64,000 nucleotides of DNA from Candidatus Latescibacterota bacterium (GTDB lineage: Bacteria; Latescibacterota; UBA2968; UBA8231), in the NCBI GenBank assembly GCA_964291625.2, contig OZ220089.1, positions 2,624,001 to 2,688,000 of the forward strand. The letters run 5' to 3'. Of this stretch, positions 8,411-21,302 are shown in pieces. Position numbers and translations under genes: made by a program. Position 1 is the first letter of the stretch; every line of letters begins with the position of its first letter. The notes below the pieces were generated by a model, which was given only the letters and a program-made list of their open reading frames with translations, did no database searches and was not told the DNA's origin.

Positions 8411-9172
8411 CTACTCCCTGATCCGGAAAGCGATGGCCGCGTTGATCGCCTCGGTGGTTCCGCCTGAGGTGATGAAATCCTGAACCTCGGCGGCGTTGAC
8501 GATCTCGGTGCTGAAGTGGTCGTTGAAGATGAAGAAGTCTTCGAACCCGACGACACCGTCGCCATCCAGGTCGAAGACCGGGTCGAAGCCGTCGTCGCCT
8601 TCCCTCCGGCCGAGGTTCTCGTGGAGCAGAAAGAAGTCGTCCAGGCCGACTCTCGCTCCCACGTAGCTGAACCAGCCGAGGACCAGGTTGCCATCGGCAT
8701 CGCGGGGCAGCGGGGCCGGGGTGACGGTACGGGCCCGGTCGGCCTCGGACCCGGGCTCGATGACCAGCATGGCCTCGTTGTCGGCATCGTAGGCCCGGAC
8801 CTCGTAGACGTACACCCCGCCGCCCGCGGTGATGTCGCCGTCGGTGTACTCGGTGATGCCGGGCGGGGTGCTGCCGATCTTGGACGGCTCCGAACCGTCG
8901 ATGCTGCGATACACGCGGTATCCGTGGACGAGGTTGCGGTAAACGTGCTGGCCGCCGAAAGTCGATCCCACGGCGTTGTCGTCGTCCGACGCGGTCCAGG
9001 TCAGGAGGACGTTGTCCTCCGCGAAAACGGCGGTGAGGCCGGTGGCCGGCGCGGGCGGGATGTCGTCGATGGAGCGGACCAACCCGTCGCCCTGGCCGTC
9101 GGAACGGACGGGGCCGAAGCAAAGGATGGCGGCGCACAGGCCGACGGCGGTTCCCTTCTTGGCAGAGAGCAT
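8411..9172 (-). CDS. Secreted protein with fibronectin type III domain and C-terminal dockerin/EF-hand-like domain
   Basis: Signal peptide; FN3 pattern PPAPATGLTA..VLLTW..GYRVYRS..YTD..YVYEVRAYD; C-terminal FDLDGDGVVGFEDFFIF. Confidence 0.7.
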   Translation of the reverse strand: MLSAKKGTAVGLCAAILCFGPVRSDGQGDGLVRSIDDIPPAPATGLTAVFAEDNVLLTWTASDDDNAVGSTFGGQHVYRNLVHGYRVYRSIDGSEPSKIGSTPPGITEYTDGDITAGGGVYVYEVRAYDADNEAMLVIEPGSEADRARTVTPAPLPRDADGNLVLGWFSYVGARVGLDDFFLLHENLGRREGDDGFDPVFDLDGDGVVGFEDFFIFNDHFSTEIVNAAEVQDFITSGGTTEAINAAIAFRIRE

Positions 9173-9303
9173 ACGTTACCTCCGGAGGGTTGAGCAGGCC
9201 GCTTGTGACAGGCCGGCTAGCACCCTAACCGCTCCGGAGGGAGAAGTCAAGCGAAAAACGGGCCGCCGCGTCGGGGCAGCGGGCTCACGAAACGGGAGGA
9301 TCC

Positions 9304-9777
9304 ATGAACAGTCTCGCGGAGCGGGAGATCCCTCTGCTGGAGCAGACCCTCTCCCTGCGCACGCAGTTGCTGGACATCCTGGGCGACGCCGATCTCGCTC
9401 ACGCCCTGCCCGGCAACCCGTCTCTCGGCGCGCTGTGCCGCGAGGCGGGTCAGTTGGAGGAGATCTACACCGACTCCTTCCGGACCTTCACCGTGGACTG
9501 GAGAGAGCGGCCGGCGCCCGGGGGAGCGGCGAGGAGAGTGACGGTCCTGCGGGAGTGGTACGCCCGCTCGGACGCTGCCCTGAAGGAGGCCCTATGCGCC
9601 CTCAGCGAGGAGGATGTCCAGGGGAAGCGGATCGATCGCGGGGATTTCAGCGTGCCCGTGGGAGTGCAGTTTCACATCTACCGCGAGTCGATCCTGATCT
9701 TCTGCGGCAAGGCGAGCGTATACCTGCGCTCCCTCGGCGAGGACCTGCCCGAGCAGTGGCGGCAGTGGATCGGTTGA
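9304..9777 (+). CDS. Hypothetical protein, DinB/YfiT-like helical bundle
   Basis: RBS GGGAGG; pattern 'D.DL....pG..SLG.L' typical of DinB-like proteins. Confidence 0.55.
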   Translation: MNSLAEREIPLLEQTLSLRTQLLDILGDADLAHALPGNPSLGALCREAGQLEEIYTDSFRTFTVDWRERPAPGGAARRVTVLREWYARSDAALKEALCALSEEDVQGKRIDRGDFSVPVGVQFHIYRESILIFCGKASVYLRSLGEDLPEQWRQWIG

Positions 9778-9914
9778 TCCGGCCCATCGCCGGGGAGCGC
9801 CGCGCCGGTACGCTCCCCGCGCCTGGTGTTCCCCGTGCCGGGTTCTCGCCCGCGCCCCCCAACCACCCTATCCTTCCCTGACCCTGTCTCCGCCTGCCAA
9901 TCCCCGGAGGCCCC

Positions 9915-10367
9915 ATGCTCACAGCGTGGATCGTCGCGGGCGCGATCATGATCCTGCTGGAGTTGTTCCTGCCCGGAATGGTGCTCGGCTTTCTCGGGTC
10001 GAGCGCCCTGATCGTGGCCGCCCTCATCTGGCTGGGCTGGATCGACAGCCTGATCTCGGCCCTCACCACCTGGTTCATCCTCTCCCTCGTCCTGCTCCTG
10101 AGTCTGCGCGGCCTGTTCCTCCGCTTCGTCGGGGGCAGGTCCGAGCGCCAGTCCACCGACGAGGAGGAGGATGCCTACGGCACGGTCGTGGACGTGGTGG
10201 AGAGGATCTCACCGGACCGGGCGGGACGGATCCACTACCGGGACGCCACCTGGCAGGCGATCTGCCATGATCGCACCATCGAGGCCGGAGAGAAGGCGAT
10301 CCTCGCCTATCGCGAGAACCTCGCGTGGGTCGTCGAGCCCGCCGGGCTGGAGGAAAGCGATCCTTGA
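9915..10367 (+). CDS. NfeD family protein (short, OB-fold)
   Basis: ILLELFLPG TM hairpin, C-terminal GRIHYRDATWQA; directly upstream of SPFH genes. Confidence 0.85.
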   Translation: MLTAWIVAGAIMILLELFLPGMVLGFLGSSALIVAALIWLGWIDSLISALTTWFILSLVLLLSLRGLFLRFVGGRSERQSTDEEEDAYGTVVDVVERISPDRAGRIHYRDATWQAICHDRTIEAGEKAILAYRENLAWVVEPAGLEESDP

Positions 10368-10384
10368 AACGGGAGAGTTGAGCC

Positions 10385-11317
10385 ATGCCGCTTCTGACCT
10401 ACTTCACGATCCTGGTGCTGATCGCCCTGTTCGTGGTGCTCAAGACGTTCGTCGTCGTGCCCATGCGCGAGGCGGTCATCGTCGAGCGCCTGGGCAAGTT
10501 CCGGGCGGTCCTGCCGCCGGGGTTCCACTTCCTCATCCCCTTCTGCGACCGCATCGCCTACCGCCACGAGACCCGCGAGCAGGTGATCGACGTCCCCAGC
10601 CAGGCCTGCATCACCCGCGACAACATCCAGGTCGAGGTCGACGGTCTGGTCTACCTGCAGGTGCTCGACCCCGAGCGGGCCAGCTACGGCATCGAGGACT
10701 ACCGCCGCGCCAGCGTCAACCTGGCGCAGACGACGATGCGGGCCGAGATCGGCAAGCTGACCCTGGGCCAGTGCTTCTACGAGCGAGAGTCCCTGAACGA
10801 GACGATCGTGCAGGAGATCGACAAGGCGTCGAACCCCTGGGGCATCAAGGTGCTGCGCTACGAGCTGCGGAACATCACGCCCTCGGCCAACGTGGTGAAC
10901 ACCCTGGAGAAGCAGATGGAGGCGGAGCGCGAGAAGCGCGCCGAGATCACCCGCGCCGCCGCCGAGAAGGAGTCCACCATCAACCTCTCCGAGGGCGAGC
11001 GCCAGGAGGAGATCAACATCTCGGAGGGCGAGAAGCAGCGCCGGATCAACGTCGCCAAGGGCCGGGCGGAGGCGATCTCCATCATCGCCGAGGCCACCGC
11101 CGAGGGCACCGAGCGGATCGCCGCCGCGGTCCAGAAGGAAGGGGGGTCGGCGGCGCTGAAGATGCAGCTGGTGGAGGAGTACATCGAGATGATCAGCGAG
11201 ATCGCGGGAAAGTCCAACGTCTCCGTCGTGCCCCTGGAGCTGGCCCGGATCAAGGGCTTCTTCGAGGGGCTGGGCGAGGTCTCCGGTGGCACGCCGACCC
11301 AGAAGAAGGGAGCCTGA
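10385..11317 (+). CDS. SPFH/band 7 (stomatin-like, paraslipin) protein
   Basis: VERLGKF, PGFHFLIPF, ITRDN..VDG, LAQTTMR, WGIKVLRYE, coiled-coil AERxKRA. Confidence 0.92.
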   Translation: MPLLTYFTILVLIALFVVLKTFVVVPMREAVIVERLGKFRAVLPPGFHFLIPFCDRIAYRHETREQVIDVPSQACITRDNIQVEVDGLVYLQVLDPERASYGIEDYRRASVNLAQTTMRAEIGKLTLGQCFYERESLNETIVQEIDKASNPWGIKVLRYELRNITPSANVVNTLEKQMEAEREKRAEITRAAAEKESTINLSEGERQEEINISEGEKQRRINVAKGRAEAISIIAEATAEGTERIAAAVQKEGGSAALKMQLVEEYIEMISEIAGKSNVSVVPLELARIKGFFEGLGEVSGGTPTQKKGA

Positions 11318-11318
11318 C

Positions 11319-12248
11319 ATGTCGACCGTCTTCGAGATCTTCAACTTCACCGTCTGGGGCGTTCTGCTCCTGGTCCTGATCGTCATGTTCCTGCGCTCGA
11401 TCCGGCTGGTGCCGACCCAGTCGGCGTACGTCGTCGAGCGGCTCGGCCAGTACTCCAGGACGCTGAATCCCGGTTTTCACGCCCTGGTGCCCTTCATCGA
11501 AAGGGTGGCCTTCATCCGCGACCTCAAGGAGGAGACCGTGGACGTGCCGCCCCAGGAGTGCTTCACCCGGGACGAGGTCCAGGTCGAGGTGGACGGCGTC
11601 CTCTACATCTCGGTCACCGACCCGGTGAAGGCCAGCTACGGGGTGACCAACTACTCCTTCGCCGCCATGCAACTGGCGCAGACGACGACCCGCTCCGTCA
11701 TCGGCACCCTCGAGCTCGACCGCACCTTCGAGGAGCGCGACCTGATCTCGGCCAAGGTCGTGGAGGTGCTGGAGAGGTCGGGGGAGACCTGGGGGATCCG
11801 CGTCCACCGCTACGAGATCAAGAACCTGTCGCCGCCGCCGACGGTGAAGGACGCCATGGAGAAGCAGGTCACCGCCGAGCGCGACCGCCGCGCCATCGTG
11901 GCCCAGTCGGAGGGCGACAAGCAGAGCCGCATCAACACCTCGGAGGGCCGGCGCCTGGAGCTGATCAACCGCTCGGAGGGCGAGATGCAGCGCACCATCA
12001 ACGAGGCCCAGGGCCAGGCCGAGGAGGTCCGGGCCATCGCCCACGCGACGGCCGAGTCGATCGAGAAGATCGCGGCCTCGATCAGCGTCGCCGGCGGCGC
12101 CCAGTCGGTGCACCTGCAGCTGGCGGAGCGCTACCTGAAGAGGCTGCGTGCTCTGGCCGACGGCAAGACGGACGTGCTCCTGCCCGTGGACCTGGCCAAC
12201 CCTCAGCAGCTGCTGGACGCCATCGAGTTGCGCGGGCCTGACGGATAG
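11319..12248 (+). CDS. SPFH/band 7 (stomatin-like) protein, second paralog
   Basis: VERLGQY, PGFHALVPF, LAQTTTRSVIG, WGIRVHRYEI; ATG 1 bp after the previous stop. Confidence 0.92.
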   Translation: MSTVFEIFNFTVWGVLLLVLIVMFLRSIRLVPTQSAYVVERLGQYSRTLNPGFHALVPFIERVAFIRDLKEETVDVPPQECFTRDEVQVEVDGVLYISVTDPVKASYGVTNYSFAAMQLAQTTTRSVIGTLELDRTFEERDLISAKVVEVLERSGETWGIRVHRYEIKNLSPPPTVKDAMEKQVTAERDRRAIVAQSEGDKQSRINTSEGRRLELINRSEGEMQRTINEAQGQAEEVRAIAHATAESIEKIAASISVAGGAQSVHLQLAERYLKRLRALADGKTDVLLPVDLANPQQLLDAIELRGPDG

Positions 12249-12340
12249 CGCTGTCGGCCGCGGGGCCACGACTCGACACCACTCCCGCGGGCAGGGCGCC
12301 CCCGGCGGTCGGCGGGTGGGGAGCCGCCAGGGGCTGACGG

Positions 12341-15300
12341 TCACTGGTCGGAGAGTCCGACCAGCAGCCGCGAGTACTCGTCCTCCAGCGGATCGACCTC
12401 GCCCCGGAGGGCCGCCCGCGCGAAGACGATGCCCGGCCGCTCGACACGGCGGGCCCGGGCCAGCACGCCGAAACCCTCCGTCCCGGAGCCCCGCTGGCCC
12501 TCGCCGAGGGACTCGAACTCCGACAGGACGCGGAACAGGCCGCGCCGGGCGCCGACCACCCTGGCCAGCACCTCGGGCGCGGTGAGCCCCTCCCGCCAGG
12601 AGCGGCGGACCCCGAGGAGCCGGCCCTCGATGTCACGCACGAGTCCGCCCGGCCCCACCAGGGTCGTGAGCTGATGGACCGTGGCCCGGGCGCCGCTGTG
12701 ACACAGCAGGGCGGCGGCGCCAAGGTCGTCGTCGTCGTAGTCGCGGAAGCCGGCGATAGTCGCCAGGGCCTCCTCGGCGCAGGCCTGCCACTGCGGCGCG
12801 TCGTCCCCTTCCGGAAGGGCGGGCAGGTCGAGGGTGTGGCCGATGAAGGGGCCGATGGAGGCGCCTTCCCCGCGGGCGGCTTCGAACCCCAGCCGCATCA
12901 GTTCCGCGGCCACGCCCAGGGCCGCCCGCTCCCCCTCGGCGGCCAGCACCTCCCGCAGCAGCCTCGAGGCCGCCGCCCGCGTGAGGAGTCCGCCCTCGAG
13001 TTCCGGTTCCCGCCCCGCGGCCTCCGCGATCCTCTTCCGGCCCGCCGCCGAGCGGCCGAGGCAGGCGAGCCCGAAGAGGGCGTCCATGCCCGGCAGCAGG
13101 TCCTCCAGGAGATCGGGATCCCGGGCCAGGTGGGCGGCGATGGACAGCCGCTCGCGGGTCTCGCCCTGGGCCATCTCCGTGAGGGGGAGGAAGACGGCCG
13201 CCTGGTCGCCGTCGAAGTCGACGTCCAGCAGGCCGCAGGCCAGGGGGCAGAGGCGGATGGCATGGCCCGGGACCGGCAGGGGCCGGAAGGCCAGCATCGC
13301 CGTGGGGCTGACGGATGGAGCGTGATTGAGGATGATCCAGTGGGCCTCCATGGTGGCGGCGAGGGCGGCCCCGGCCTCGGAGAAGCGCCTGCTGACCGCT
13401 TCGGGATCCCCCAACTCGCGCGCCGCCAGCGGCCCGAAGAGGCTCCAGGCCATCTCCTCCGGCAGACCGATCCGGTCGGCCGCCAGGTCGCTTCCGGGGA
13501 CGATTACGGCGCGGCCGCTGAAGAGCACATTCTCATCCCGCCCCGGCTCCGGGGCCGGCGCCAGTCCGTCGTACAGGGCCGACACGGCGGCGGCCAGGTC
13601 GTCCCGGGCCGCGGCTGCCAGGGGCTCGGGAGCCTTATCCTTCAGCAGCCGCGCGAGCCGGGCGTTGGCGGCGGCGACCCCGGGATACCCGGCGGCCTCC
13701 TCCGCGTTGCAGACCTCGGACAGGGTCTCCCCCGGCAGCCACGGGTGGGGGACGCCGGCGGCCAGGGACAGCGTCGGCCCCGGGTGTGGTTCCAGCCGGA
13801 AGGCGACGCCCCCGGCGCCGGCTTCGGCGCGGATTCCGGCCTGCGCCAGCCCAGCCGCCAGGGCGGCGAAGGCGGGTGAGGGGGTGGTCGCCGGCTCGAC
13901 CGGTCCGGCGGCGGCCCTGCCGGCCAGGGAACCCGCGTCGCCGCGCCGGGTGGAGCAGGTGTTGGTCAGCTCCCGGATCACCGCGGGTGCGCCGGCCTCG
14001 GCCAAGGCCCGCACCTCCATCACCCCCAGGCGCTGGCCCCTGTCGTCCGGGTGGACGGCGGCCCTCAGCTTCGGGCGCGCGCGGTGCAGCGTGCAGCCCC
14101 AGTAGACCCATCCGGCCGTGGCCGGCCGCCGCAGGGGCGTGCCGCCGAGGGTCAGCCTGGTCATGCCGTCGGCGCGCAGGCCGCTGCCCCGAAGCAGGTC
14201 CCGCAGCTGCTCGTCCGAGGGCGCCTCGAAGGGCGGCACCACGGCGGGCTCCCCCCGCAGGAGGGCCGCGTGGCCGAGGGCGGCCTCCCGGACCAGCCCC
14301 ATGACCCAGCGGGACGGGATGCCCGAGAAGCTGAAGACCAGCTCCACGGGGGTGCCGTCCGGCAGCCGCGGCATCTCCTCGTCGGGCGCCACCCGCGACA
14401 CGACGCCCTTGACCCCGTGCCGGTTGCTGAGCTTGTCGCCGGCTTCGAGGGGGTCCGGGCAGGCGAGCTTGCGGGCGCCGGACCGGCTGACCAGCAAGGC
14501 GTCGTCGAAAGCGTCGCCGTCCCAGGAGACCAGGGCCGTGAGGAGGTTCCGGCCGCACCAGAAGTCCGGCGCCGTCGGCTCGAGGCCGGTCCGCACCAGG
14601 GCCGGCTCCCTCTCGGCGGGCGCCAGCCACTGGCGCATCATGTTGGCGCCCATGAGCACGCGGTTGCCGTCGTCGTTCTCGAGGAAGGGGACGCAGGCGC
14701 CGGAGATGCCCAGTCCCTCCGCGGGCTGCGCGTCGACGATCACCAGCCGGCGGCCTCGGATCTCCGCTCCCCGGGAAATCGTCAGGACGCGGCCGATGTT
14801 CGGTCCTTCCGGGGTCTCGAAGGGGCAGGTGCGGCCGAAGTGGGCCGGGGTGAACACCTCCTGGCGGCCGGGGACCAGGAGCCGGCGCAGGTGCGCGGCC
14901 CGGGACAGCCAGTTGGTGTCGTCGAGCCGCTCGCCGCAGGAGGCCAGGAAGGCCTGGAACCAGTCCCCCAGAGGCGCCAGGGTCCGCAGGAGGGACCCGT
15001 CGAGGGGGGTGTGCTCGGGGACCTGGCCCAGGCGGGCCTCGATGAAGGTGGAGAGCCGGTCGCCGAGACAGCCGATGCGCGCCTCGGCCAGGTCGTCGCG
15101 GTCGGCCACGGGAGGCACGACCAGCTCGACGCCGCCCGAGGGGTCGCGCTCCCCCCCGGGGATCGTCCTCGGAGGCGGCAGGCTGGGACTGGCCTCCGCC
15201 ACCCGGAAGACGCCCTCTTCGTCCGGCGCGGGCAGCCCGTCGTATTCGACCTCGAAGTCCCCCTCGACCGAGGGTCCGCCGAGGACGATCCGGCAGGCGT

Positions 15301-15427
15301 GCTCGCCGGCCCCTTCGGCGCGGTAGCTGCTCACCCCCAGCCGTGCGGCCAGCAGCTCGGGAAGGCGGCGGTGCAGGAAGTCGTCGAAGGAGGCCTTGTG
15401 CCACGGGTTGGCCGGCGTCGTTCTCAT
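12341..15427 (-). CDS. Miniature fused DNA-directed RNA polymerase beta-beta'-like protein (1028 aa)
   Basis: Colinear RpoB motifs (CPFETPEGPNIG; VPFLENDDGNRVLMGANMMRQ; GDKLSNRHGVKGVVS; GIPSR; GQRLGVMEV) followed by RpoC motifs (FSGRAVI..GLPEEMA; LNHAP; DVDFDGDQ; SGAR; REGL..GARRGL; RGEVDPL..LLVG). Confidence 0.93.
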   Translation of the reverse strand: MRTTPANPWHKASFDDFLHRRLPELLAARLGVSSYRAEGAGEHACRIVLGGPSVEGDFEVEYDGLPAPDEEGVFRVAEASPSLPPPRTIPGGERDPSGGVELVVPPVADRDDLAEARIGCLGDRLSTFIEARLGQVPEHTPLDGSLLRTLAPLGDWFQAFLASCGERLDDTNWLSRAAHLRRLLVPGRQEVFTPAHFGRTCPFETPEGPNIGRVLTISRGAEIRGRRLVIVDAQPAEGLGISGACVPFLENDDGNRVLMGANMMRQWLAPAEREPALVRTGLEPTAPDFWCGRNLLTALVSWDGDAFDDALLVSRSGARKLACPDPLEAGDKLSNRHGVKGVVSRVAPDEEMPRLPDGTPVELVFSFSGIPSRWVMGLVREAALGHAALLRGEPAVVPPFEAPSDEQLRDLLRGSGLRADGMTRLTLGGTPLRRPATAGWVYWGCTLHRARPKLRAAVHPDDRGQRLGVMEVRALAEAGAPAVIRELTNTCSTRRGDAGSLAGRAAAGPVEPATTPSPAFAALAAGLAQAGIRAEAGAGGVAFRLEPHPGPTLSLAAGVPHPWLPGETLSEVCNAEEAAGYPGVAAANARLARLLKDKAPEPLAAAARDDLAAAVSALYDGLAPAPEPGRDENVLFSGRAVIVPGSDLAADRIGLPEEMAWSLFGPLAARELGDPEAVSRRFSEAGAALAATMEAHWIILNHAPSVSPTAMLAFRPLPVPGHAIRLCPLACGLLDVDFDGDQAAVFLPLTEMAQGETRERLSIAAHLARDPDLLEDLLPGMDALFGLACLGRSAAGRKRIAEAAGREPELEGGLLTRAAASRLLREVLAAEGERAALGVAAELMRLGFEAARGEGASIGPFIGHTLDLPALPEGDDAPQWQACAEEALATIAGFRDYDDDDLGAAALLCHSGARATVHQLTTLVGPGGLVRDIEGRLLGVRRSWREGLTAPEVLARVVGARRGLFRVLSEFESLGEGQRGSGTEGFGVLARARRVERPGIVFARAALRGEVDPLEDEYSRLLVGLSDQ

Positions 15428-15428
15428 G

Positions 15429-16034
15429 TCAGTCTTCCTCCCAGTCGATCCCCAGCTCGCGCCAGGATCGAGCGATCTGTTTGCGGGCGTGGTGGATCCG
15501 GGACTTCACCGTGCCCTCGGGTATGCCCAGCTCCAAAGCGGCCTGGCGAGTGTTCATGTTGCCGTCGTAGATCAGCCGGATGACCTTGCGCCGGTCCTCC
15601 GGCAGGCGCGTCACCAGGCCGCGCAGCAGCCGCCGGCGCTCCGCCAGGGCCAGGACCTCGTCGGGCGGAAGGGTGGAGGCGTCGATCATCCATTCCGGCA
15701 CCCGCTCCTCCCTCCCCTCCTCTCCCTCCATGGCGGGGGGAGGCTGCAGCGGCTGCTCGTGACGGCGCCGGACCGAGCGGATGTGGTTGAGGGCCAGGTT
15801 CGTGGCGATGCGCAGCAGCCAGGCGAGCAGGGGGCCCTCGCCCTTCCACTGTCCGGCGCGGTGCCACAGACGGAGGAAGACCTCCTGACCGACGTCGGCG
15901 GCGTCCTCGTCATGGCGATGGATGCGCCGCAGGTGACGCTGCACATCGGCGCGGTAGCGCTCGAAGAGCTTGGCGAAGTCCTCCTGCCGCCCCTCGATCA
16001 CCCCGCGGACCAGCTCCTCGTCGCTCTTCCCCAT
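15429..16034 (-). CDS. ECF-subfamily sigma-70 factor
   Basis: SDEELV, region 2 DAADVGQEVFLRLW..WLLRIATN, region 4 LPEDRRKV..LGIPEGTVKSRIHHAR; RBS GGAGG. Confidence 0.93.
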   Translation of the reverse strand: MGKSDEELVRGVIEGRQEDFAKLFERYRADVQRHLRRIHRHDEDAADVGQEVFLRLWHRAGQWKGEGPLLAWLLRIATNLALNHIRSVRRRHEQPLQPPPAMEGEEGREERVPEWMIDASTLPPDEVLALAERRRLLRGLVTRLPEDRRKVIRLIYDGNMNTRQAALELGIPEGTVKSRIHHARKQIARSWRELGIDWEED

Positions 16035-16049
16035 CCGGCCTCCACCCGG

Positions 16050-16077
16050 TTGACACCGCCGGCGCCTGCCGGGTTCA
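16050..16077 (-). promoter_or_regulatory. Putative ECF-sigma (autoregulatory) promoter
   Basis: Minus strand TGAACC-16 nt-TGTCAA, ending 15 nt upstream of the sigma ATG; fits the AAC/GTC ECF consensus. Confidence 0.55.
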
Positions 16078-17421
16078 CCGGGCCGGGGGAGCCGGTTCCG
16101 CGATGCAGTAGAGGTGGTGTCGTCCCCGCAGATAGAGCTCGCCGCCGGCCAGGGCCGCCGAGGCGCTGAAGCTGTCGTCGAGGTGGTTGACGGCCAGGAC
16201 GGCGGGGGCGTCCGCGTGGCTGACGACCACGGTGGCGCCGTTGCGGCCGGTGACGTAGACGCGGCCGGCGGCGGCGACGGGAGAGGCGAAGACCCGGTCG
16301 AGGCCCTTCAACCGCATCGGCCCCGGCCGGTCCCCCCCGGTCCGGGCGTCGACGCGGGTGAGGATGTTCTGGAAGTGGCGGACGAAGTAGAGGGCGTCGC
16401 CGTAGAGCAGGAGGGAGGGGACGTACGGCGCCCCCCGGGTGCGGCTCCAGGCGGCCCGGCGGCTGCGGCTGTCCTCGCCCTCGGAGGGTTGGAGGGGAAT
16501 CGCCAGCACCGCCTGCCGGTCGTAGCTGCTCCCCGCGAAGACGAGGCCGAAGCCGGCCACCGGCGTGGCGACCACGTTCTCCACCGAGAGCCCCGGACAC
16601 TCCCAGATCCTGCGGCCGTCGGCGAGGTCGTAGCCGCGCACTCCCCCGGAGCCGCTGACCACGACCTGGGGCCGGCCGCCGGCCTCGGTGACGATGGGGG
16701 TGGTCCAGGACGAGGCCGGTGCGCGGGGGCTCTTCCAGCGGAGGGCGCCCGTCCCCTTGTCGAAGGCGGCGAGGAAGGACTCCCCCTCGTGGTCCCAATT
16801 GACGATCAGAGCCCCGCCGGCGACCGCCGGCGAGCTGCCTTCGCCGTGGCCGTGGAGCGGCTCCAGGGGGCCGAGGTCCAACTCCCACAGCAGCTCCCCA
16901 TCGAGATCGAGGCCGTAGATCCCGTGGGAGCCGAAGGAGGCGACCAGGTGCTCGCCGTCGGTCACCGCCGAGGCGGAGGCCAGGCTCGCCGTGTAGTGGC
17001 CGCCGGCGCGGGGCAGGGCCTCGCGCACCACCCGCTGCCAGAGGACCTGTCCCGTGCGGCGGTCCAGGGCGAGGACGACGAACCGGTGGCGGTGAGTGAC
17101 CGGCCGTTCGTCGTGGCTGCCCGGCAGGCCGCTGAGCTTCGGACGCAGAGGTTCGCCGTAGGGGACGGCGGCGGTGATGAAGATCCGGTCGCCCCAGACC
17201 ACCGGCGTCGAGTGGCCGCCGCCGGGAAGCGCCGCCTTCCAGCGCAGGTTGCGGGTCTCGCTCCACTCGAGCGGTGGATCGGCGTGGGGTGCGGCGCCGG
17301 TGCCCAGGGGGCCGCGCCAGGCGGGCCAGAAGCGGTCCCCATCGGTCTCCGGCTCGCCGGAGGCCGCGGTCAGCAGGCAGCAGACCACCGCGAGGGCCGC
17401 GGATGGGCCCATGCGGACCAT
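16075..17421 (-). CDS. PQQ-binding-like beta-propeller repeat protein (BamB-like), secreted
   Basis: Signal peptide, WPAWRGP..G, WSETRNLRWK..LPG.GHSTPVVWGDRIF, repeated SSP / W..G motifs. Confidence 0.88.
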   Translation of the reverse strand: MVRMGPSAALAVVCCLLTAASGEPETDGDRFWPAWRGPLGTGAAPHADPPLEWSETRNLRWKAALPGGGHSTPVVWGDRIFITAAVPYGEPLRPKLSGLPGSHDERPVTHRHRFVVLALDRRTGQVLWQRVVREALPRAGGHYTASLASASAVTDGEHLVASFGSHGIYGLDLDGELLWELDLGPLEPLHGHGEGSSPAVAGGALIVNWDHEGESFLAAFDKGTGALRWKSPRAPASSWTTPIVTEAGGRPQVVVSGSGGVRGYDLADGRRIWECPGLSVENVVATPVAGFGLVFAGSSYDRQAVLAIPLQPSEGEDSRSRRAAWSRTRGAPYVPSLLLYGDALYFVRHFQNILTRVDARTGGDRPGPMRLKGLDRVFASPVAAAGRVYVTGRNGATVVVSHADAPAVLAVNHLDDSFSASAALAGGELYLRGRHHLYCIAEPAPPAR

Positions 17422-17423
17422 TC

Positions 17424-19520
17424 TCAGACCACGGGGGGCGGGTCCGCTCTCCGTGCGGGCTCGGGATCGGCCAGGCGCAACAGGTCCCGCCGGGCGGAGG
17501 ACTGCGCCACCCGCACCCGCAGGACCTGGCCGGGCGCGGCCTGCAGCCGCTGCCCCCGGGGGGCGGGGACGTGGCACGCCACCGGGCCCTCGGGCAGCAG
17601 GACCAGGTGGCCGGGCCCGCGCGGCTCGGCGACCACGCACTGCAGCCGCGCCTTGTCCCCAAGGCTTTCGAGCCATTTGAGCGTCCAGTAGCGGCGGCTG
17701 CAGCGGCGCACGCGCTCCGCCGTCTCCCGGGCCTCGCGCGTCTCCAGCAGGATGCGCTCCAGGTCCTCTGCCGTCAGGGGGTCGGAGCGCCGGCCCGCGA
17801 TCCACAGCAGCTGCCGCTGCATGGCCAGGTCGACGTAGCTCGACAGGGGGCCGGCGCCCGGAGCGCAGGCCGGAAGTCCGAGACCCGCGTGGGGGGCGGG
17901 GGACGTCCCGAGCCTCTCGCGCGGGGTCCCGCTCTCGTGCAGATGGGTGCGGAGGACCTCGGCCGACGTGGAGTCGGCGGCGAGGGGGACGCCGGACTCG
18001 GCGGGCGGGGCCTCGCGCACCGCGTGGATCGCGGGCGCCGCGTCGCGGCAGAGGCGGGCGATCGCTTCGGCGGCCAGCAGGCCCAGCTCCGAGTCGACGC
18101 GATCCTCAACCCCCTCCGCCGCCGGCTCCGCCCGTCCTTGACGGACCGCGATCCGGTCGGCGGGATGCAGTTGCTGCCAGGCCCCCGCCCGCCGCCGCCT
18201 CTGCCGCCGCCCCTCGGCCAGCGCCGCCAGGCGGCGCACCGGGGCGCTGCCCTCGCCGGCCGCGAGCGCCGCACGGGGCCGGGCGCGGCCCAGGGACAGC
18301 CGCACCTTCTGCGGCGCCAGCTCCCGGTCCAGGCGCACGCTCAGGATCAGGACGGGTCGGGCCTCGTCCGCCGTCAGCCGGCAGGCGTCGGTCAGATCCG
18401 GCGGCAGCATCGGGATCTCCCGCTCCAGCAGGCGCACGCTGAGTCCCCGGGCGGCGGCTTCCTGATCGATGGCGCCGCCGTCCTCCACCCACAGGGCCGG
18501 CACGGCCATGTGGATGTCGACGACGGTGTGGCCGAGCAGGCTCCGGCGGAGACGGTAGGCCCGCTGGCCGCAGCGGGTGACGCAGAGGCCCGCGCCCCAG
18601 CGTCGGCGGCCTGCCCACCCAGCGAGGACGGCCGAGGGGTCGAGGCCGCGCGCCGCTCTCTTCGCCGCCTCGGAGAATGCCACGGGCAGGCCGAGGCGGT
18701 GCAGCTCCAGGTTCTCGTCGGCGGACCAGTGACCCAGGCGGACGAGGACGTCGAAGGCGGCGTGGCTTCCGTGCAGGTTGGCAGCCTTCATCAGCCGGGC
18801 GGCCTCCGCGCTCGCCTCGCCCAGGGCGGCGGCCTCGAGCAGGTCCACCGCCGAGTCCGCCCCGACGGGACGGGGGCTGGATGGGTGCCCGTCGGCGACC
18901 CTTCGGACCCACGAGGCCAGCTCGGTCTGGCGGCCTTCCTCCCTCTCCTCGCGGGCCGAGGATGCCTCGATCCCCTCTACCGCCGCCGGGGAGCGGGGGC
19001 GCCAGCGGGCGCCGTGGCGCTCGAACCGGTGGCCGCGCCACAGGGCCCGGAGCATGCCGGCCCGGCGGCTGGCGTTCGGATCGCCGGGGTCGTGGAGCTC
19101 GACCAGATCGTCGAGCCGCCACTCGCCGCCCTCCGGGCCCCCCTCGAGAGCGACCTGCCAGAGGGCCGTGAGATCGACGGCGCCGCGGGCCTGCTCGCGC
19201 CTCCGGTCGATGCGGCGGAGGTCGGCCAGCGCCATCTCGGGGGTGTGCATCGACACGTACTCCGGGGATACGTCCACCACCTTGTCGCGGCGGAGGTGGA
19301 GCCGGCGGCCGTCGACGCCGACGACGTCGTAGCCCCTGCGGTTCTGCGGATCCCGGGCGAGGTAGCCGCACTGAAGCTGGCCGCCGCGGCGGAACTCGAG
19401 CACCGCGCCGGCGCGCTCGAGAGCGGGCTTCGCGCCGCGTTCGGCCTGCACCAGGCGCGCCACCTCCCGGCGGGAGGCGTCGTCGAGGGAGTTGGTCAGA
19501 TGTCGCGGCCAGCGGACCAT
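17424..19520 (-). CDS. RNB (RNase II/R)-family protein with degenerate catalytic motifs and S1-like C-terminus
   Basis: LLEREIPMLPP.L, PAPHAGLGL..GPLSSYVDLAMQRQL (cf. H.GL....TSPIRRY.DL..HR), RRYWTLKWL; the catalytic acidic D-x(7,8)-DD stretch is not visible. Confidence 0.7.
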   Translation of the reverse strand: MVRWPRHLTNSLDDASRREVARLVQAERGAKPALERAGAVLEFRRGGQLQCGYLARDPQNRRGYDVVGVDGRRLHLRRDKVVDVSPEYVSMHTPEMALADLRRIDRRREQARGAVDLTALWQVALEGGPEGGEWRLDDLVELHDPGDPNASRRAGMLRALWRGHRFERHGARWRPRSPAAVEGIEASSAREEREEGRQTELASWVRRVADGHPSSPRPVGADSAVDLLEAAALGEASAEAARLMKAANLHGSHAAFDVLVRLGHWSADENLELHRLGLPVAFSEAAKRAARGLDPSAVLAGWAGRRRWGAGLCVTRCGQRAYRLRRSLLGHTVVDIHMAVPALWVEDGGAIDQEAAARGLSVRLLEREIPMLPPDLTDACRLTADEARPVLILSVRLDRELAPQKVRLSLGRARPRAALAAGEGSAPVRRLAALAEGRRQRRRRAGAWQQLHPADRIAVRQGRAEPAAEGVEDRVDSELGLLAAEAIARLCRDAAPAIHAVREAPPAESGVPLAADSTSAEVLRTHLHESGTPRERLGTSPAPHAGLGLPACAPGAGPLSSYVDLAMQRQLLWIAGRRSDPLTAEDLERILLETREARETAERVRRCSRRYWTLKWLESLGDKARLQCVVAEPRGPGHLVLLPEGPVACHVPAPRGQRLQAAPGQVLRVRVAQSSARRDLLRLADPEPARRADPPPVV

Positions 19521-19528
19521 GGTCCCTG

Positions 19529-19580
19529 AGGGTATCCTCTCCACTTCGACAGTGTCAACCGCAATCCGAGGGCCTATAAT
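19529..19580. promoter_or_regulatory. Divergent sigma70-like promoter region
   Basis: Minus strand: TTGACA (19558-19553)-18 nt-TACCCT (19534-19529), 8 nt before ATG 19520. Plus strand: perfect TATAAT at 19575-19580, 14 nt before ATG 19595. Confidence 0.45.
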
Positions 19581-19594
19581 CTGCGGCGGCCGTC

Positions 19595-20176
19595 ATGGTT
19601 TCCCGCGCATCCACATCCCGTCCCCCGCCTCCGGCGCTGCGCCGGTTCTTCGGGGCCATGGTGCGCCCCTGCTTCGCCAGCCTCGGACTCGGCGCGGGGG
19701 AGCTGGCCGACTACGTCACCGACCTGCTCGCCCGTTTTTCGCGCACCGACCAGCTCTACCGGGTCCGCGACAGCCGCGGACGGCCCCTGCACACCCTCAC
19801 CGACCTGCTGCTGGAGCTGATGGAGGAGTGGGGATCCGACCGGGCCTGGTCCTTCGACCGGGAGGTCGACCTGCGCCGCCACTGCGGCGACTACGCCCTC
19901 TTTCTGTCCGGCGTCTTCCGCCCCCACGTCGAGGCCGGCGGACACCTCTCCTACTACCTGAGGGAAGGGGGCGAGAGCTACCGGCTCGTGGGCGAGCACC
20001 TGCAGCTGGCGGGCGCCCGCCAGGCCCGCCTCTTCCGGGGCATGGCCGACCGCTTCGAGGAGCTGTCGGGGACCCTCGACTACCTGCGCAAGGTGCACAT
20101 GGCGCCGGCCCTGCACGGGCATCCGTACGGCGCCGCCCTCCGCGGCTTCGAGGTGGACGGCGCCGGAGAGTCCTGA
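19595..20176 (+). CDS. Conserved hypothetical protein
   Basis: Host-like codon usage; motifs YVTDLLARF, RRHCGDYALFLSGVF, YYLREG..SY resemble a widespread uncharacterised helical family. Confidence 0.65.
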   Translation: MVSRASTSRPPPPALRRFFGAMVRPCFASLGLGAGELADYVTDLLARFSRTDQLYRVRDSRGRPLHTLTDLLLELMEEWGSDRAWSFDREVDLRRHCGDYALFLSGVFRPHVEAGGHLSYYLREGGESYRLVGEHLQLAGARQARLFRGMADRFEELSGTLDYLRKVHMAPALHGHPYGAALRGFEVDGAGES

Positions 20177-20231
20177 CCCCGGCGGGGCATCGGCCGCGGG
20201 GGACGCAGCGGCCCCGGCACGCCATCCACGG

Positions 20232-21302
20232 ATGACCCAGGTCCTGCCTCCCCTGCCGCGCATCACGCCGCGCGGCGTCCTCCTGACGGCGGCGGCCTGG
20301 CTGCTCTACACCGTCGCCTTCGAGATCTACTTCGCCGTCATGCTGGGGGCTCCCCTCGGCGCCTCCCTTCCAGGCCGCGCCATCGGCAGCGCCTGGATGG
20401 GGCTCTACAGCGTGCCCGTCTGGCTGGTCGTCATCCGGGGCCTCGACCGGTCCGCCTGGGGCTGGCGGGTCCTGGCCCACGCGATCCTCTGCCCGCTGTA
20501 CGTGGCCGCCAACTGGTACACCATGGACCTCATCTCCCGATGGATGTACGGCGCGCCGATCGCGCCCGCGGACCTGGTGATCTGGCAGTTGCTGGGGTTC
20601 GTGTTCACCTACATGGTGCAGTTCGGGCTGTTCCACATCGTCCGGGCCGGGCAGAAACTGCGCTGGCGTGAGAGCCGGCAGGCGGCGCTGGAGCGCCTGC
20701 TGCGCGAGCAGCAGCTGGCGGTCCTGCGGTCGCAGCTGAACCCGCACTTCCTGTTCAACAGCCTGAACACGATCAGCGCCGTCCTCGGCCAGGACGCCGA
20801 GAAGGCGCGCCGGCTGATCGCCCGACTGGGAGACGTGCTGCGCTACGCCGTCGATTCCGTGGAGCGGGATACGGTTTCCCTGGCCGAGGAGTGGGCGCTG
20901 ACGCGCAGCTACCTCGAGGTCGAGCAGGCGCGTCTCGGGGAGCGGCTCGAGGTGCTGGCGGAGATGGCCGGTCCTGTCCTCACGTCCGAGGTGCCTCCCA
21001 TGATCCTGCAGCCGCTGGTGGAGAACGCCATCGTCCACGGCGTCGCTCCCCTTCCCGAGGGCGGGCGCCTGCGGGTCTCGGCGGATCAGGCGGCGGACCG
21101 GGTGGTGCTCGCGGTGAGCAACACCGGGGCGGTCGTTGCGGGCGATGCCGCCCTCTGGGAGTCCCGGGGCACCGCCCTCAGGAACATCCGGACCCGCCTG
21201 CGGACCCTGTACGGGGACGGGGCGGAGTTGCGGTTGTCGTCACCGGCCGCGGGTGGATTCGAGGCGGTGGTTCGCCTGCCGGCCAGGGGCTCGCATGACT
21301 GA
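20232..21302 (+). CDS. LytS/YehU-type sensor histidine kinase
   Basis: TM N-terminus; LRSQLNPHFLFNSLNTI, LQPLVENAIVHG. Confidence 0.93.
   Translation: MTQVLPPLPRITPRGVLLTAAAWLLYTVAFEIYFAVMLGAPLGASLPGRAIGSAWMGLYSVPVWLVVIRGLDRSAWGWRVLAHAILCPLYVAANWYTMDLISRWMYGAPIAPADLVIWQLLGFVFTYMVQFGLFHIVRAGQKLRWRESRQAALERLLREQQLAVLRSQLNPHFLFNSLNTISAVLGQDAEKARRLIARLGDVLRYAVDSVERDTVSLAEEWALTRSYLEVEQARLGERLEVLAEMAGPVLTSEVPPMILQPLVENAIVHGVAPLPEGGRLRVSADQAADRVVLAVSNTGAVVAGDAALWESRGTALRNIRTRLRTLYGDGAELRLSSPAAGGFEAVVRLPARGSHD

Follow-up and report, generated by a model that had tools for sequence, protein, structure and literature searches.

What does a miniature RNA polymerase do in a bacterium that also encodes an ordinary one, and why does its gene lie directly behind that of a sigma factor? 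The question is raised by a locus in a 64,000-nucleotide stretch of contig OZ220089.1 of a Candidatus Latescibacterota bacterium (the whole of this stretch is called the window, and coordinates are counted from its first letter unless another locus is named). Here, the gene for an extracytoplasmic function (ECF)-type sigma factor, P0002, is followed by that for a single-chain protein, P0001, which combines portions of the beta and beta-prime subunits of RNA polymerase (RNAP) and is referred to below as the mini-RNAP. An earlier note, made from the sequence alone, had proposed that the two genes are coupled and had offered three models for their function. The translational coupling of the sigma factor to a genuine fused beta/beta-prime polymerase is borne out by the analysis. 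With a probability that we put at roughly 0.55, the dedicated ECF-type sigma factor and the pruned polymerase form a two-polypeptide holoenzyme, acting as one functional unit and encoded by an autoregulated operon.

A single-chain polymerase pruned from beta and beta-prime

The mini-RNAP matches the Pfam domains Rpb2_3 (residues 168-222, E 6e-08), Rpb2_6 (residues 327-443, E 8e-26) and Rpb1_2 (residues 695-759). It scores 154.7 bits with the rpoB model TIGR02013 (cut-off 801) and 99.1 bits with the rpoC model TIGR02386 (cut-off 963.5), and is thus neither a full-length RpoB nor a full-length RpoC. It does possess the fork of RpoB and its catalytic barrel, in which the conserved Lys/Arg positions are kept, as well as the Asp-triad motif (of the NADFDGD type), the clamp helices and the bridge helix of RpoC. 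An AlphaFold2 model based on an alignment of 116 sequences reached a mean predicted local distance difference test score (pLDDT) of 91.8 and a predicted template modelling score of 0.90. The best Foldseek matches of this model in the PDB were all bacterial beta or beta-prime chains, and the closest solved relatives by sequence were likewise bacterial beta (E 6e-41) and beta-prime (E 2e-26) chains. The same genome holds a single mini-RNAP, together with one ordinary rpoB (1278 residues) and one rpoC (1363 residues) on another contig.

A domain map was obtained by aligning the family profile to the RpoB and RpoC proteins of the same genome and to solved chains (Table 1). The family-specific N-terminal domain has no counterpart in the genome's own RpoB, and was modelled by AlphaFold2 with a pLDDT of 84.5 when taken alone (residues 1-155). 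The idea that it represents a relocated flap or lobe was discarded, as a Foldseek search of the PDB returned no match at E<=0.001 (best E 0.24). When 1.84 billion representatives were searched with a profile of this domain, 204 matched at E<=0.001, and in 149 of the 150 matches listed the domain is located at or near the N-terminus (start at or before residue 58). The proteins that bear it are either ~1000 residues in length or shorter pieces, the latter taken to be fragments, and the mini-RNAP family is real but rare. It was also observed that positions 38-118 of the profile, corresponding to the beta-sheet part of the domain, match 11 repeats in an unrelated protein of 2213 residues, P0275; the domain may be derived from a common repeat fold.

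Beyond the fork, the flap, which is known to bind sigma factors (according to the accessible portion of PMC7824862), is reduced to a short linker. Its counterpart, residues 779-919 of Bacillus subtilis beta and 786-1041 of the genome's own beta, the latter being represented by eight profile positions, is gone, which corresponds to roughly 140-255 residues of canonical beta. The C-terminal part of beta (residues 1044-1271 of the genome's own chain) extends to mini-RNAP residue ~540, where the beta-prime part joins at residue ~238 of the genome's own beta-prime, so that the clamp-helix hairpin, switch 2, the Asp-triad barrel, a reduced funnel and the F-loop/bridge helix are all retained. The clamp helices, switch 2 and the bridge helix align with the genome's own beta-prime with an hhalign probability of 99.9 (E 5e-31), and in the AlphaFold2 model the clamp hairpin comprises helices 581-596 and 601-622. 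No more than ~50 residues follow the bridge helix. Residues 1-260 (including the N-terminus) and 784-1363 of beta-prime are without counterpart in the mini-RNAP by hhalign and hmmsearch, the second of these being the half that bears the trigger loop and the jaw.

Sigma region 2 docks mainly on the beta-prime coiled coil, to which the clamp helices correspond, and in the mini-RNAP family a stripe of clamp-helix residues (N588, R590, P600, L603, L611 and L622) is 90-100% conserved. As for the catalytic residues, D737 and D741 of the metal-binding motif were found in 116/116 family sequences and D739 in 115/116, while K332, R336 and R265 were found in all 116 and K340 in 115. The two barrels are furthermore the best conserved regions of the protein (0.74-0.77, compared to 0.66 overall). 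As far as conservation can tell, this pattern fits an active enzyme.

A side observation concerns antibiotic binding. Residues Q469, H482 and S487 of B. subtilis beta, which we take to be rifampicin-resistance sites, fall in window positions 14880-14950 (mini-RNAP residues ~162-185); Q469 corresponds to E166 (family consensus Q), H482 is kept as H179 and S487 lies in a two-residue deletion. The rifampicin pocket of the mini-RNAP may, judging by this alignment, be altered.

The sigma factor, its predicted promoter and the inheritance of the pair

The assignment of P0002 as an ECF sigma factor proved sound. It matches Sigma70_r2 (PF04542, E 2e-14) and Sigma70_r4_2 (PF08281, E 9e-14), and scores 92.9 bits with TIGR02937 (cut-off 42.9), as expected of an ECF (group 4) sigma-70 protein carrying regions 2 and 4 only, while none of the named ECF equivalog models of NCBIfam reaches its cut-off with this protein. 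An alignment of 37 orthologs (36-93% identity) displays a P-x-W-M-I-D stretch kept in the linker and an acidic tail of the W-E-E type. The protein is unique in its own genome, the next ECF match being found by tblastn at E 1e-12. On re-reading, the junction and the upstream elements given by the earlier note were all found to be exact: the sigma stop codon (TGA, 15431-15429) is separated from the mini-RNAP start codon (ATG, 15427-15425) by a single nucleotide (C, 15428), and the sigma start codon (ATG at 16034) is preceded by GGAGG and by TGAACC-N16-TGTCAA.

A scan covering one genome per species yielded 594 confirmed stretches, the best 80 of which were examined and resolved into 39 loci of the mini-RNAP family and 41 ordinary rpoBC loci. 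The family loci, which carry at least eight phylum labels, belong to Latescibacterota, Poribacteria, Chloroflexota, Armatimonadota, Planctomycetota, Myxococcota and Gemmatimonadota or are unclassified, and all derive from metagenome-assembled genomes of uncultured carriers. Homologs mostly lacking the adjacent sigma gene had been named beforehand as an outcome that would speak against the pairing; instead, 38 of the 39 loci have a sigma ortholog (37-93% identity) on the same strand upstream of the polymerase gene, and the remaining one offers 52 nucleotides of upstream DNA only. The pairing is no coincidence. In about 29 of these 38 loci the sigma stop and the polymerase start are at most ~25 nucleotides apart or overlap, in six the spacer measures 73-263 nucleotides and in three another gene is inserted. 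No third conserved gene emerged from an all-against-all clustering of every flank open reading frame (ORF) of the 39 loci, and the cognate anti-sigma gene that is usually co-transcribed with an ECF sigma gene is neither present at the P0002 locus nor conserved across the family.

The three insertions, all in Latescibacterota loci, are situated at positions 6162-7958 of L012, 6002-7762 of L026 and 6783-7928 of L018. Those of L012 and L026 hold an ORF of 586-598 residues, read from its sequence as ABC-transporter-like, and that of L018 an unrelated ORF of 381 residues; several genomes of genus g19 appear, from the spacing, to have a similar gap of ~2 kb between sigma and polymerase genes.

Of 151 sampled genomes of the phylum, 53 carry the polymerase and 51 the sigma ortholog, with both present in 50 of the 54 carriers, the polymerase alone in three and the sigma factor alone in one; one genome has two copies of each. 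Two of the four single-gene genomes, G132 and G048, have the gene at a contig end. G147 and G153 are decayed or variant copies: in G147, the sigma gene and approximately the first 114 polymerase codons are gone, the promoter motif being retained ~140 nucleotides upstream (L115), while G153 is considered below.

The distribution of the pair also bears on the possibility that it belongs to a mobile element, a prophage or an anti-phage defence island and serves that element. Its spread is patchy, three of eight other species of the same genus carrying it (20 of 20 do so in another genus), the neighbourhoods vary, and the known single-chain two-barrel polymerases are those of phages and mobile elements (as far as the accessible portions of PMC5467207 and PMC7824862 go). 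Set against this, 72,556 plasmid records and 50,697 phage records contained no full-length relative: 68 and 24 records matched, respectively, none covering at least 80% of the query, and the annotated matches among those listed were all ordinary rpoB/rpoC. PADLOC returned no family, a PHROGs scan returned only full-length beta- or beta-prime-like families, and no gene for an integrase, a transposase or a phage protein is conserved next to the pair in the 39 loci. Furthermore, the mini-RNAP tree follows phylum labels: a quickly built tree of 34 sequences, from which six loci whose genes are incomplete were omitted, requires six label changes, compared to a minimum of five and to 16.6 on average after shuffling. 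These data lend no support to an origin in a mobile element or a defence island, which is regarded as very improbable. Where family proteins bear database names, they are called 'hypothetical' or named only after their Pfam domains.

The earlier note had also claimed an ECF-type promoter upstream of the sigma gene, with TGAAC as its -35 element (16077-16073) and GTGTC as its -10 element (16056-16052; the TGTCAA of the note occupies 16055-16050). Upstream regions of the window and 36 further loci (n=37) were examined for the strict form, TGAAC-N16-G[T/C]GTC, which was found in 32 of them, and for a loose form, which was found in 35 and has the N16 spacing in 34 of these 35; the two loci without it bear near-variants. 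The motif begins 38-64 nucleotides ahead of the sigma start codon (140 in one case) and has the consensus TGAAC(C/T)T ... CGGTGTC. In comparison, both strands of the remaining 1.26 Mb of the same loci gave one strict and ten loose matches, shuffled upstream regions gave 0.075 matches per set of 37, and the window contains a single match where 0.04 would be expected from 100 shuffles. On this sequence evidence the motif is a strong phylogenetic footprint across phyla, as would be expected of the predicted promoter. A spacing of 16 nucleotides is usual for ECF promoters, and P0002 most likely recognizes TGAAC-N16-GTGTC, by which it would regulate its own synthesis. In a DNA contig of a related strain (run X3, depth 4.7), a 14-nucleotide insertion at 16067 duplicates the -35 region.

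The genome scan that the earlier note suggested for defining a regulon delivered no convincing further sites. The strict motif TGAAC-N16-GTGTC has four matches in the 5.9-Mb genome, including that of the operon (reversed control: 0), and TGAAC-N15-GGTGTC has 5, 3, 2, 12 and 5 matches in five other carriers (reversed control: 2, 0, 1, 0 and 10), counts which are near those of the control except for ten repeat copies in G004. No promoter copy was found upstream of another gene in these six genomes, all 16 strict matches outside the operon and the repeat lying inside open frames of at least 200 codons. On present evidence, promoters of this type appear to have no conserved target other than the operon itself.

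Several candidate sites were set aside in the course of this search. The ten identical matches of G004, each a perfect TGAAC-N15-GGTGTC, sit in a ~1.25-kb repeat of at least ten copies (L086-L111), which is read as an insertion sequence. The top site by position weight matrix, at 25.1 bits (operon 21.5; G000:C1:3116277-3116302, L085 8278-8303, plus strand), lies antisense within a gene for a UvrD/helicase-IV-like protein of 1260 residues with topoisomerase zinc ribbons, and was taken as a chance match. A weaker intergenic site (G000:C1:2303404-2303432, L114, minus strand) reads TGAACTT ... GGAGTC, with GGAGTC instead of GGTGTC, and is located 40 nucleotides ahead of a gene for a 117-residue STAS-domain protein, with a Fic-domain gene divergent from it; it was rejected as a conserved target, since a search of five related carriers at E<=1e-15 failed to recover the STAS protein. 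Finally, L012 has a loose motif 125 nucleotides before the polymerase gene, past the inserted ORF, which was not seen in L018 or L026.

These results allow the second model of the earlier note to be weighed, namely that the mini-RNAP is a polymerase mimic which sequesters the sigma factor via its clamp helices and releases it on a signal. The mini-RNAP indeed sits where ECF operons usually have the anti-sigma gene, with no other candidate for that role nearby, its clamp helices are retained, and the weak binding prediction described below would fit such a role equally well. A pure decoy would, however, have no need of catalytic residues kept in 115-116 of 116 sequences within the most conserved regions of the protein, and a freed sigma factor would have only its own operon to switch on. 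A pure decoy or anti-sigma role is for these reasons unlikely, and of the three models this one loses ground and that of a two-gene transcription system fits best, while the third, that of a backup polymerase, is neither favoured nor opposed by the data.

How the pair may work

According to the reading that we prefer, the operon would be driven by its conserved ECF promoter, and the first rounds of transcription would be performed by the sigma factor on the host core enzyme, as the usual ECF spacing suggests. Since the polymerase is translationally coupled to the sigma factor, both would be made together, whereupon the mini-RNAP would capture the sigma factor through its retained clamp helices to give a holoenzyme of two polypeptides. 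This enzyme would synthesize RNA with its complete two-barrel active site, dispensing with lobes, flap, trigger loop, jaw and beta-prime N-terminus, and the capture of the sigma factor would supply the negative feedback that is normally given by an anti-sigma factor. Taken together, the clamp helices, the coupled synthesis, the co-inheritance and the invariant active site make a case that the two proteins associate physically and that the enzyme is functional.

A structure prediction of the complex, one of the checks put forward at the outset, was carried out for the sigma factor and polymerase residues 1-799 with custom alignments and three controls. It returned a score of 0.39, the best control reaching 0.00, with runs agreeing in at least 65% of contacts and a partner pLDDT of at least 65. 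This result was graded as weak support: the mark applied is reached by 58 of 80 solved complexes and two of 110 mismatched pairs, and at scores of 0.60 or below only by seven of the 80 solved complexes and by both of the passing mismatches. As solved sigma/core complexes exist, the pass may moreover reflect likeness only.

With respect to expression, runs labelled as sponge metagenome contain the stretch or a close relative of it, and an RNA-library contig of 1070 nucleotides from a sponge sample covers positions 15123-16185 with eight differences, thereby bridging the sigma/polymerase junction. In X2 and X22, RNA contigs leave parts of the stretch uncovered, a gap to which no weight is given.

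A number of points weigh against the holoenzyme as proposed. The flap, which holds sigma region 4 and sets the spacing between the -35 and -10 elements in every solved holoenzyme, is deleted, and as the N-terminal domain is unlike anything solved, the positioning of region 4 on the mini-RNAP is left unexplained; with the flap missing, a self-contained holoenzyme that reads an N16 promoter is something that we infer and not a result. A sigma-directed enzyme would, in the six genomes searched, have no visible target besides its own operon, and its predicted binding to the sigma factor is supported only weakly. The RNA contig extends 108 nucleotides upstream of the promoter motif, carry-over of DNA is possible and the contigs show no transcript ends. 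Lastly, the single-contig genome G153 (L116; completeness 93%) retains an intact polymerase frame of 1047 residues, yet no sigma ortholog is found anywhere in it; an ORF of 89 residues upstream of this frame was ruled out as a sigma remnant (hhalign probability 0.3).

The absence of the flap and an N16 spacing of the canonical kind, in particular, keep in play an alternative in which the sigma factor works with the host core only and the mini-RNAP is its single target gene. The mini-RNAP would then act free of sigma, in the manner of the phage polymerase YonO, on special templates such as nicked, single-stranded or RNA templates, or in priming or repair. The alternative accounts well for a spacing typical of ECF promoters read by the normal holoenzyme, for the loss of the flap that region 4 needs, for a regulon consisting of the operon alone and for the sigma-free polymerase frame of G153. 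It leaves unexplained, however, why sigma-docking clamp helices are kept and conserved, why coupling is tight in about 29 of 38 loci, why the two genes co-occur nearly perfectly and why the sigma family maintains its linker and tail features; the binding prediction, weak as it is, also points the opposite way. We consider this explanation doubtful, though not to be dismissed lightly.

The two-polypeptide holoenzyme may also be conceived in a stronger form, as an autonomous promoter-specific machine in which the sigma factor starts the operon on the host enzyme and is then taken over by the mini-RNAP. Such a machine would dispense with alpha and omega as well as with flap, lobes and trigger loop. 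RNA polymerase is blocked by numerous phage proteins and antibiotics through the very surfaces that the mini-RNAP has lost, and a small programme of RNA synthesis would therefore continue during a shutdown of the main enzyme. This stronger form is put forward tentatively, being clearly less probable than the holoenzyme as such.

In the window, which has a G+C content of 70%, the sigma and mini-RNAP genes are the last two of a head-to-tail run of four genes on the minus strand, the others being an RNB-like gene and a PQQ/BamB-type propeller gene (Table 1). The TGA of TGAACC (16077-16075) doubles as the stop codon of the propeller gene, and the -35 element thus shares this codon, leaving an intergenic gap of only 40 nucleotides between propeller and sigma genes. 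The absence of an adjacent anti-sigma gene, as claimed by the earlier note, holds good: no anti-sigma-like gene lies beside the pair, and the neighbours with Pfam assignments are RNB, PQQ_2 and Band_7. The RNB and PQQ genes were considered as components of the system and rejected, as they recur with the pair in the closest relative, L001, only; their ORFs, the latter listed from 17805, overlap in different frames. No Rfam family was found in positions 9000-21000, and neither a sigma-70-type promoter nor an intrinsic terminator was found in positions 11800-16500.

Table 1. Position and basis of assignment of features of the sigma/mini-RNAP locus (window coordinates; residue numbers refer to the mini-RNAP)
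Feature	Coordinates	Strand	Remarks	Basis
RNB-domain exoribonuclease-like gene	17424-19544	minus		Pfam
PQQ_2 (PQQ/BamB-type propeller) ORF	16075-17805 as listed	minus	stop at 16075	Pfam
Putative ECF-type promoter motif TGAAC-N16-GTGTC	16052-16077	minus		sequence and conservation
GGAGG ribosome-binding site	16039-16043	minus	4 nucleotides ahead of sigma ATG	sequence only
ECF-type sigma factor P0002	15429-16034	minus	201 residues	Pfam, NCBIfam
Single-chain fused beta/beta-prime mini-RNAP P0001	12341-15427	minus	1028 residues	Pfam, NCBIfam, AlphaFold2, Foldseek
Family-specific N-terminal domain	14978-15427	minus	residues 1-150; replaces beta 1-430 (lobes)	
Beta fork / Rpb2_3 segment	14762-14926	minus	residues 168-222	Pfam (E 6e-08), solved beta chains
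11-residue linker replacing the flap (SBHM insert)	14450-14482	minus	residues 316-326	alignments
Beta barrel catalytic motif G-D-K-x-S-N-R-H-G-x-K-G	14405-14440	minus	residues 330-341	conservation
Clamp-helix hairpin	13562-13687	minus	residues 581-622	hhalign to own beta-prime ~262-305
Beta-prime barrel metal-binding motif D-F-D-G-D	13205-13219	minus	residues 737-741	conservation
F-loop and bridge-helix segment	12503-12721	minus	residues 903-975	hhalign to own beta-prime ~690-790
Band_7 gene	ends 12248		convergent to mini-RNAP	Pfam

Significance and comparison with known systems

The standard view holds that bacteria have one RNA polymerase core which exchanges sigma factors. A second, chromosomal, single-chain core with a private sigma factor would, if real, constitute an exception to this one-core rule, and the autonomous machine, if it exists, would be the smallest natural sigma-dependent polymerase and would reveal what the bacterial enzyme can do without in recognizing promoters and initiating transcription. 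A natural minimal enzyme of 1028 residues with a sigma factor of 201 residues, compared to a core of 400 kDa, would make it testable which core parts are needed for promoter-directed initiation and how sigma region 4 is positioned without a flap. Backup transcription, a special RNA product and feedback control are candidate biological roles, and the compact pair is attractive as an orthogonal expression module.

No description of the pair was found in the full-text literature (supplements being outside its coverage), nor in the accessible portions of PMC2919709, PMC7824862 and PMC7826278, the main text of the last of which, an ECF reclassification paper, makes no mention of a polymerase-subunit partner as far as that portion goes. 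The pair looks like an undescribed miniature transcription machine, and it is best placed by reference to five types of known system.

The ECF groups without anti-sigma factor resemble it in lacking an adjacent anti-sigma gene and in having a conserved partner gene of another kind (accessible portion of PMC8999054), but no described group was found to have a polymerase-like partner. Salmonella phage Arash provides a precedent for a non-host polymerase of the beta/beta-prime type that travels with its own sigma-family factor; its polymerase, however, is that of a phage, has separate large subunits and is packaged in virions (accessible portion of PMC10585845), whereas the present pair is cellular and chromosomal, consists of a much smaller single chain and employs an ECF-type sigma factor.

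YonO of the SPbeta prophage is likewise a single-chain two-barrel RNA polymerase of ~100 kDa (accessible portion of PMC5467207) without a flap-type insert (accessible portion of PMC7824862). It is set apart, by its description in the portions available, as phage-borne and very distantly related to the multisubunit enzymes, and no report of a sigma partner was found there; the mini-RNAP, in contrast, is sigma-paired, chromosomal and plainly a descendant of the bacterial beta and beta-prime subunits.

Full-length beta::beta-prime fusions (NCBIfam NF011417 and NF007172) share with the mini-RNAP the order of beta followed by beta-prime in one polypeptide. Their models, however, are 2839-2890 positions long, and the mini-RNAP scores 148.7 and 136.4 bits with them, far from the respective cut-offs of 4632 and 5372. 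In addition, such a fusion is the only polymerase of its cell, whereas the genome studied here also keeps separate, normal rpoB and rpoC genes.

The last of the five is the bacterial core with an ECF sigma factor, with which the pair has in common the catalytic barrels, fork, switch 2, clamp helices and bridge helix, a sigma factor of regions 2 and 4 only, and a promoter of the AAC / GTC type with 16-nucleotide spacing. The core, however, comprises ~2640 residues, as opposed to the single chain of the mini-RNAP, and has the lobes, flap, beta-prime N-terminus, trigger loop and jaw that the latter is without, while the mini-RNAP system is distinguished by its new N-terminal domain and by the lack of an anti-sigma factor.

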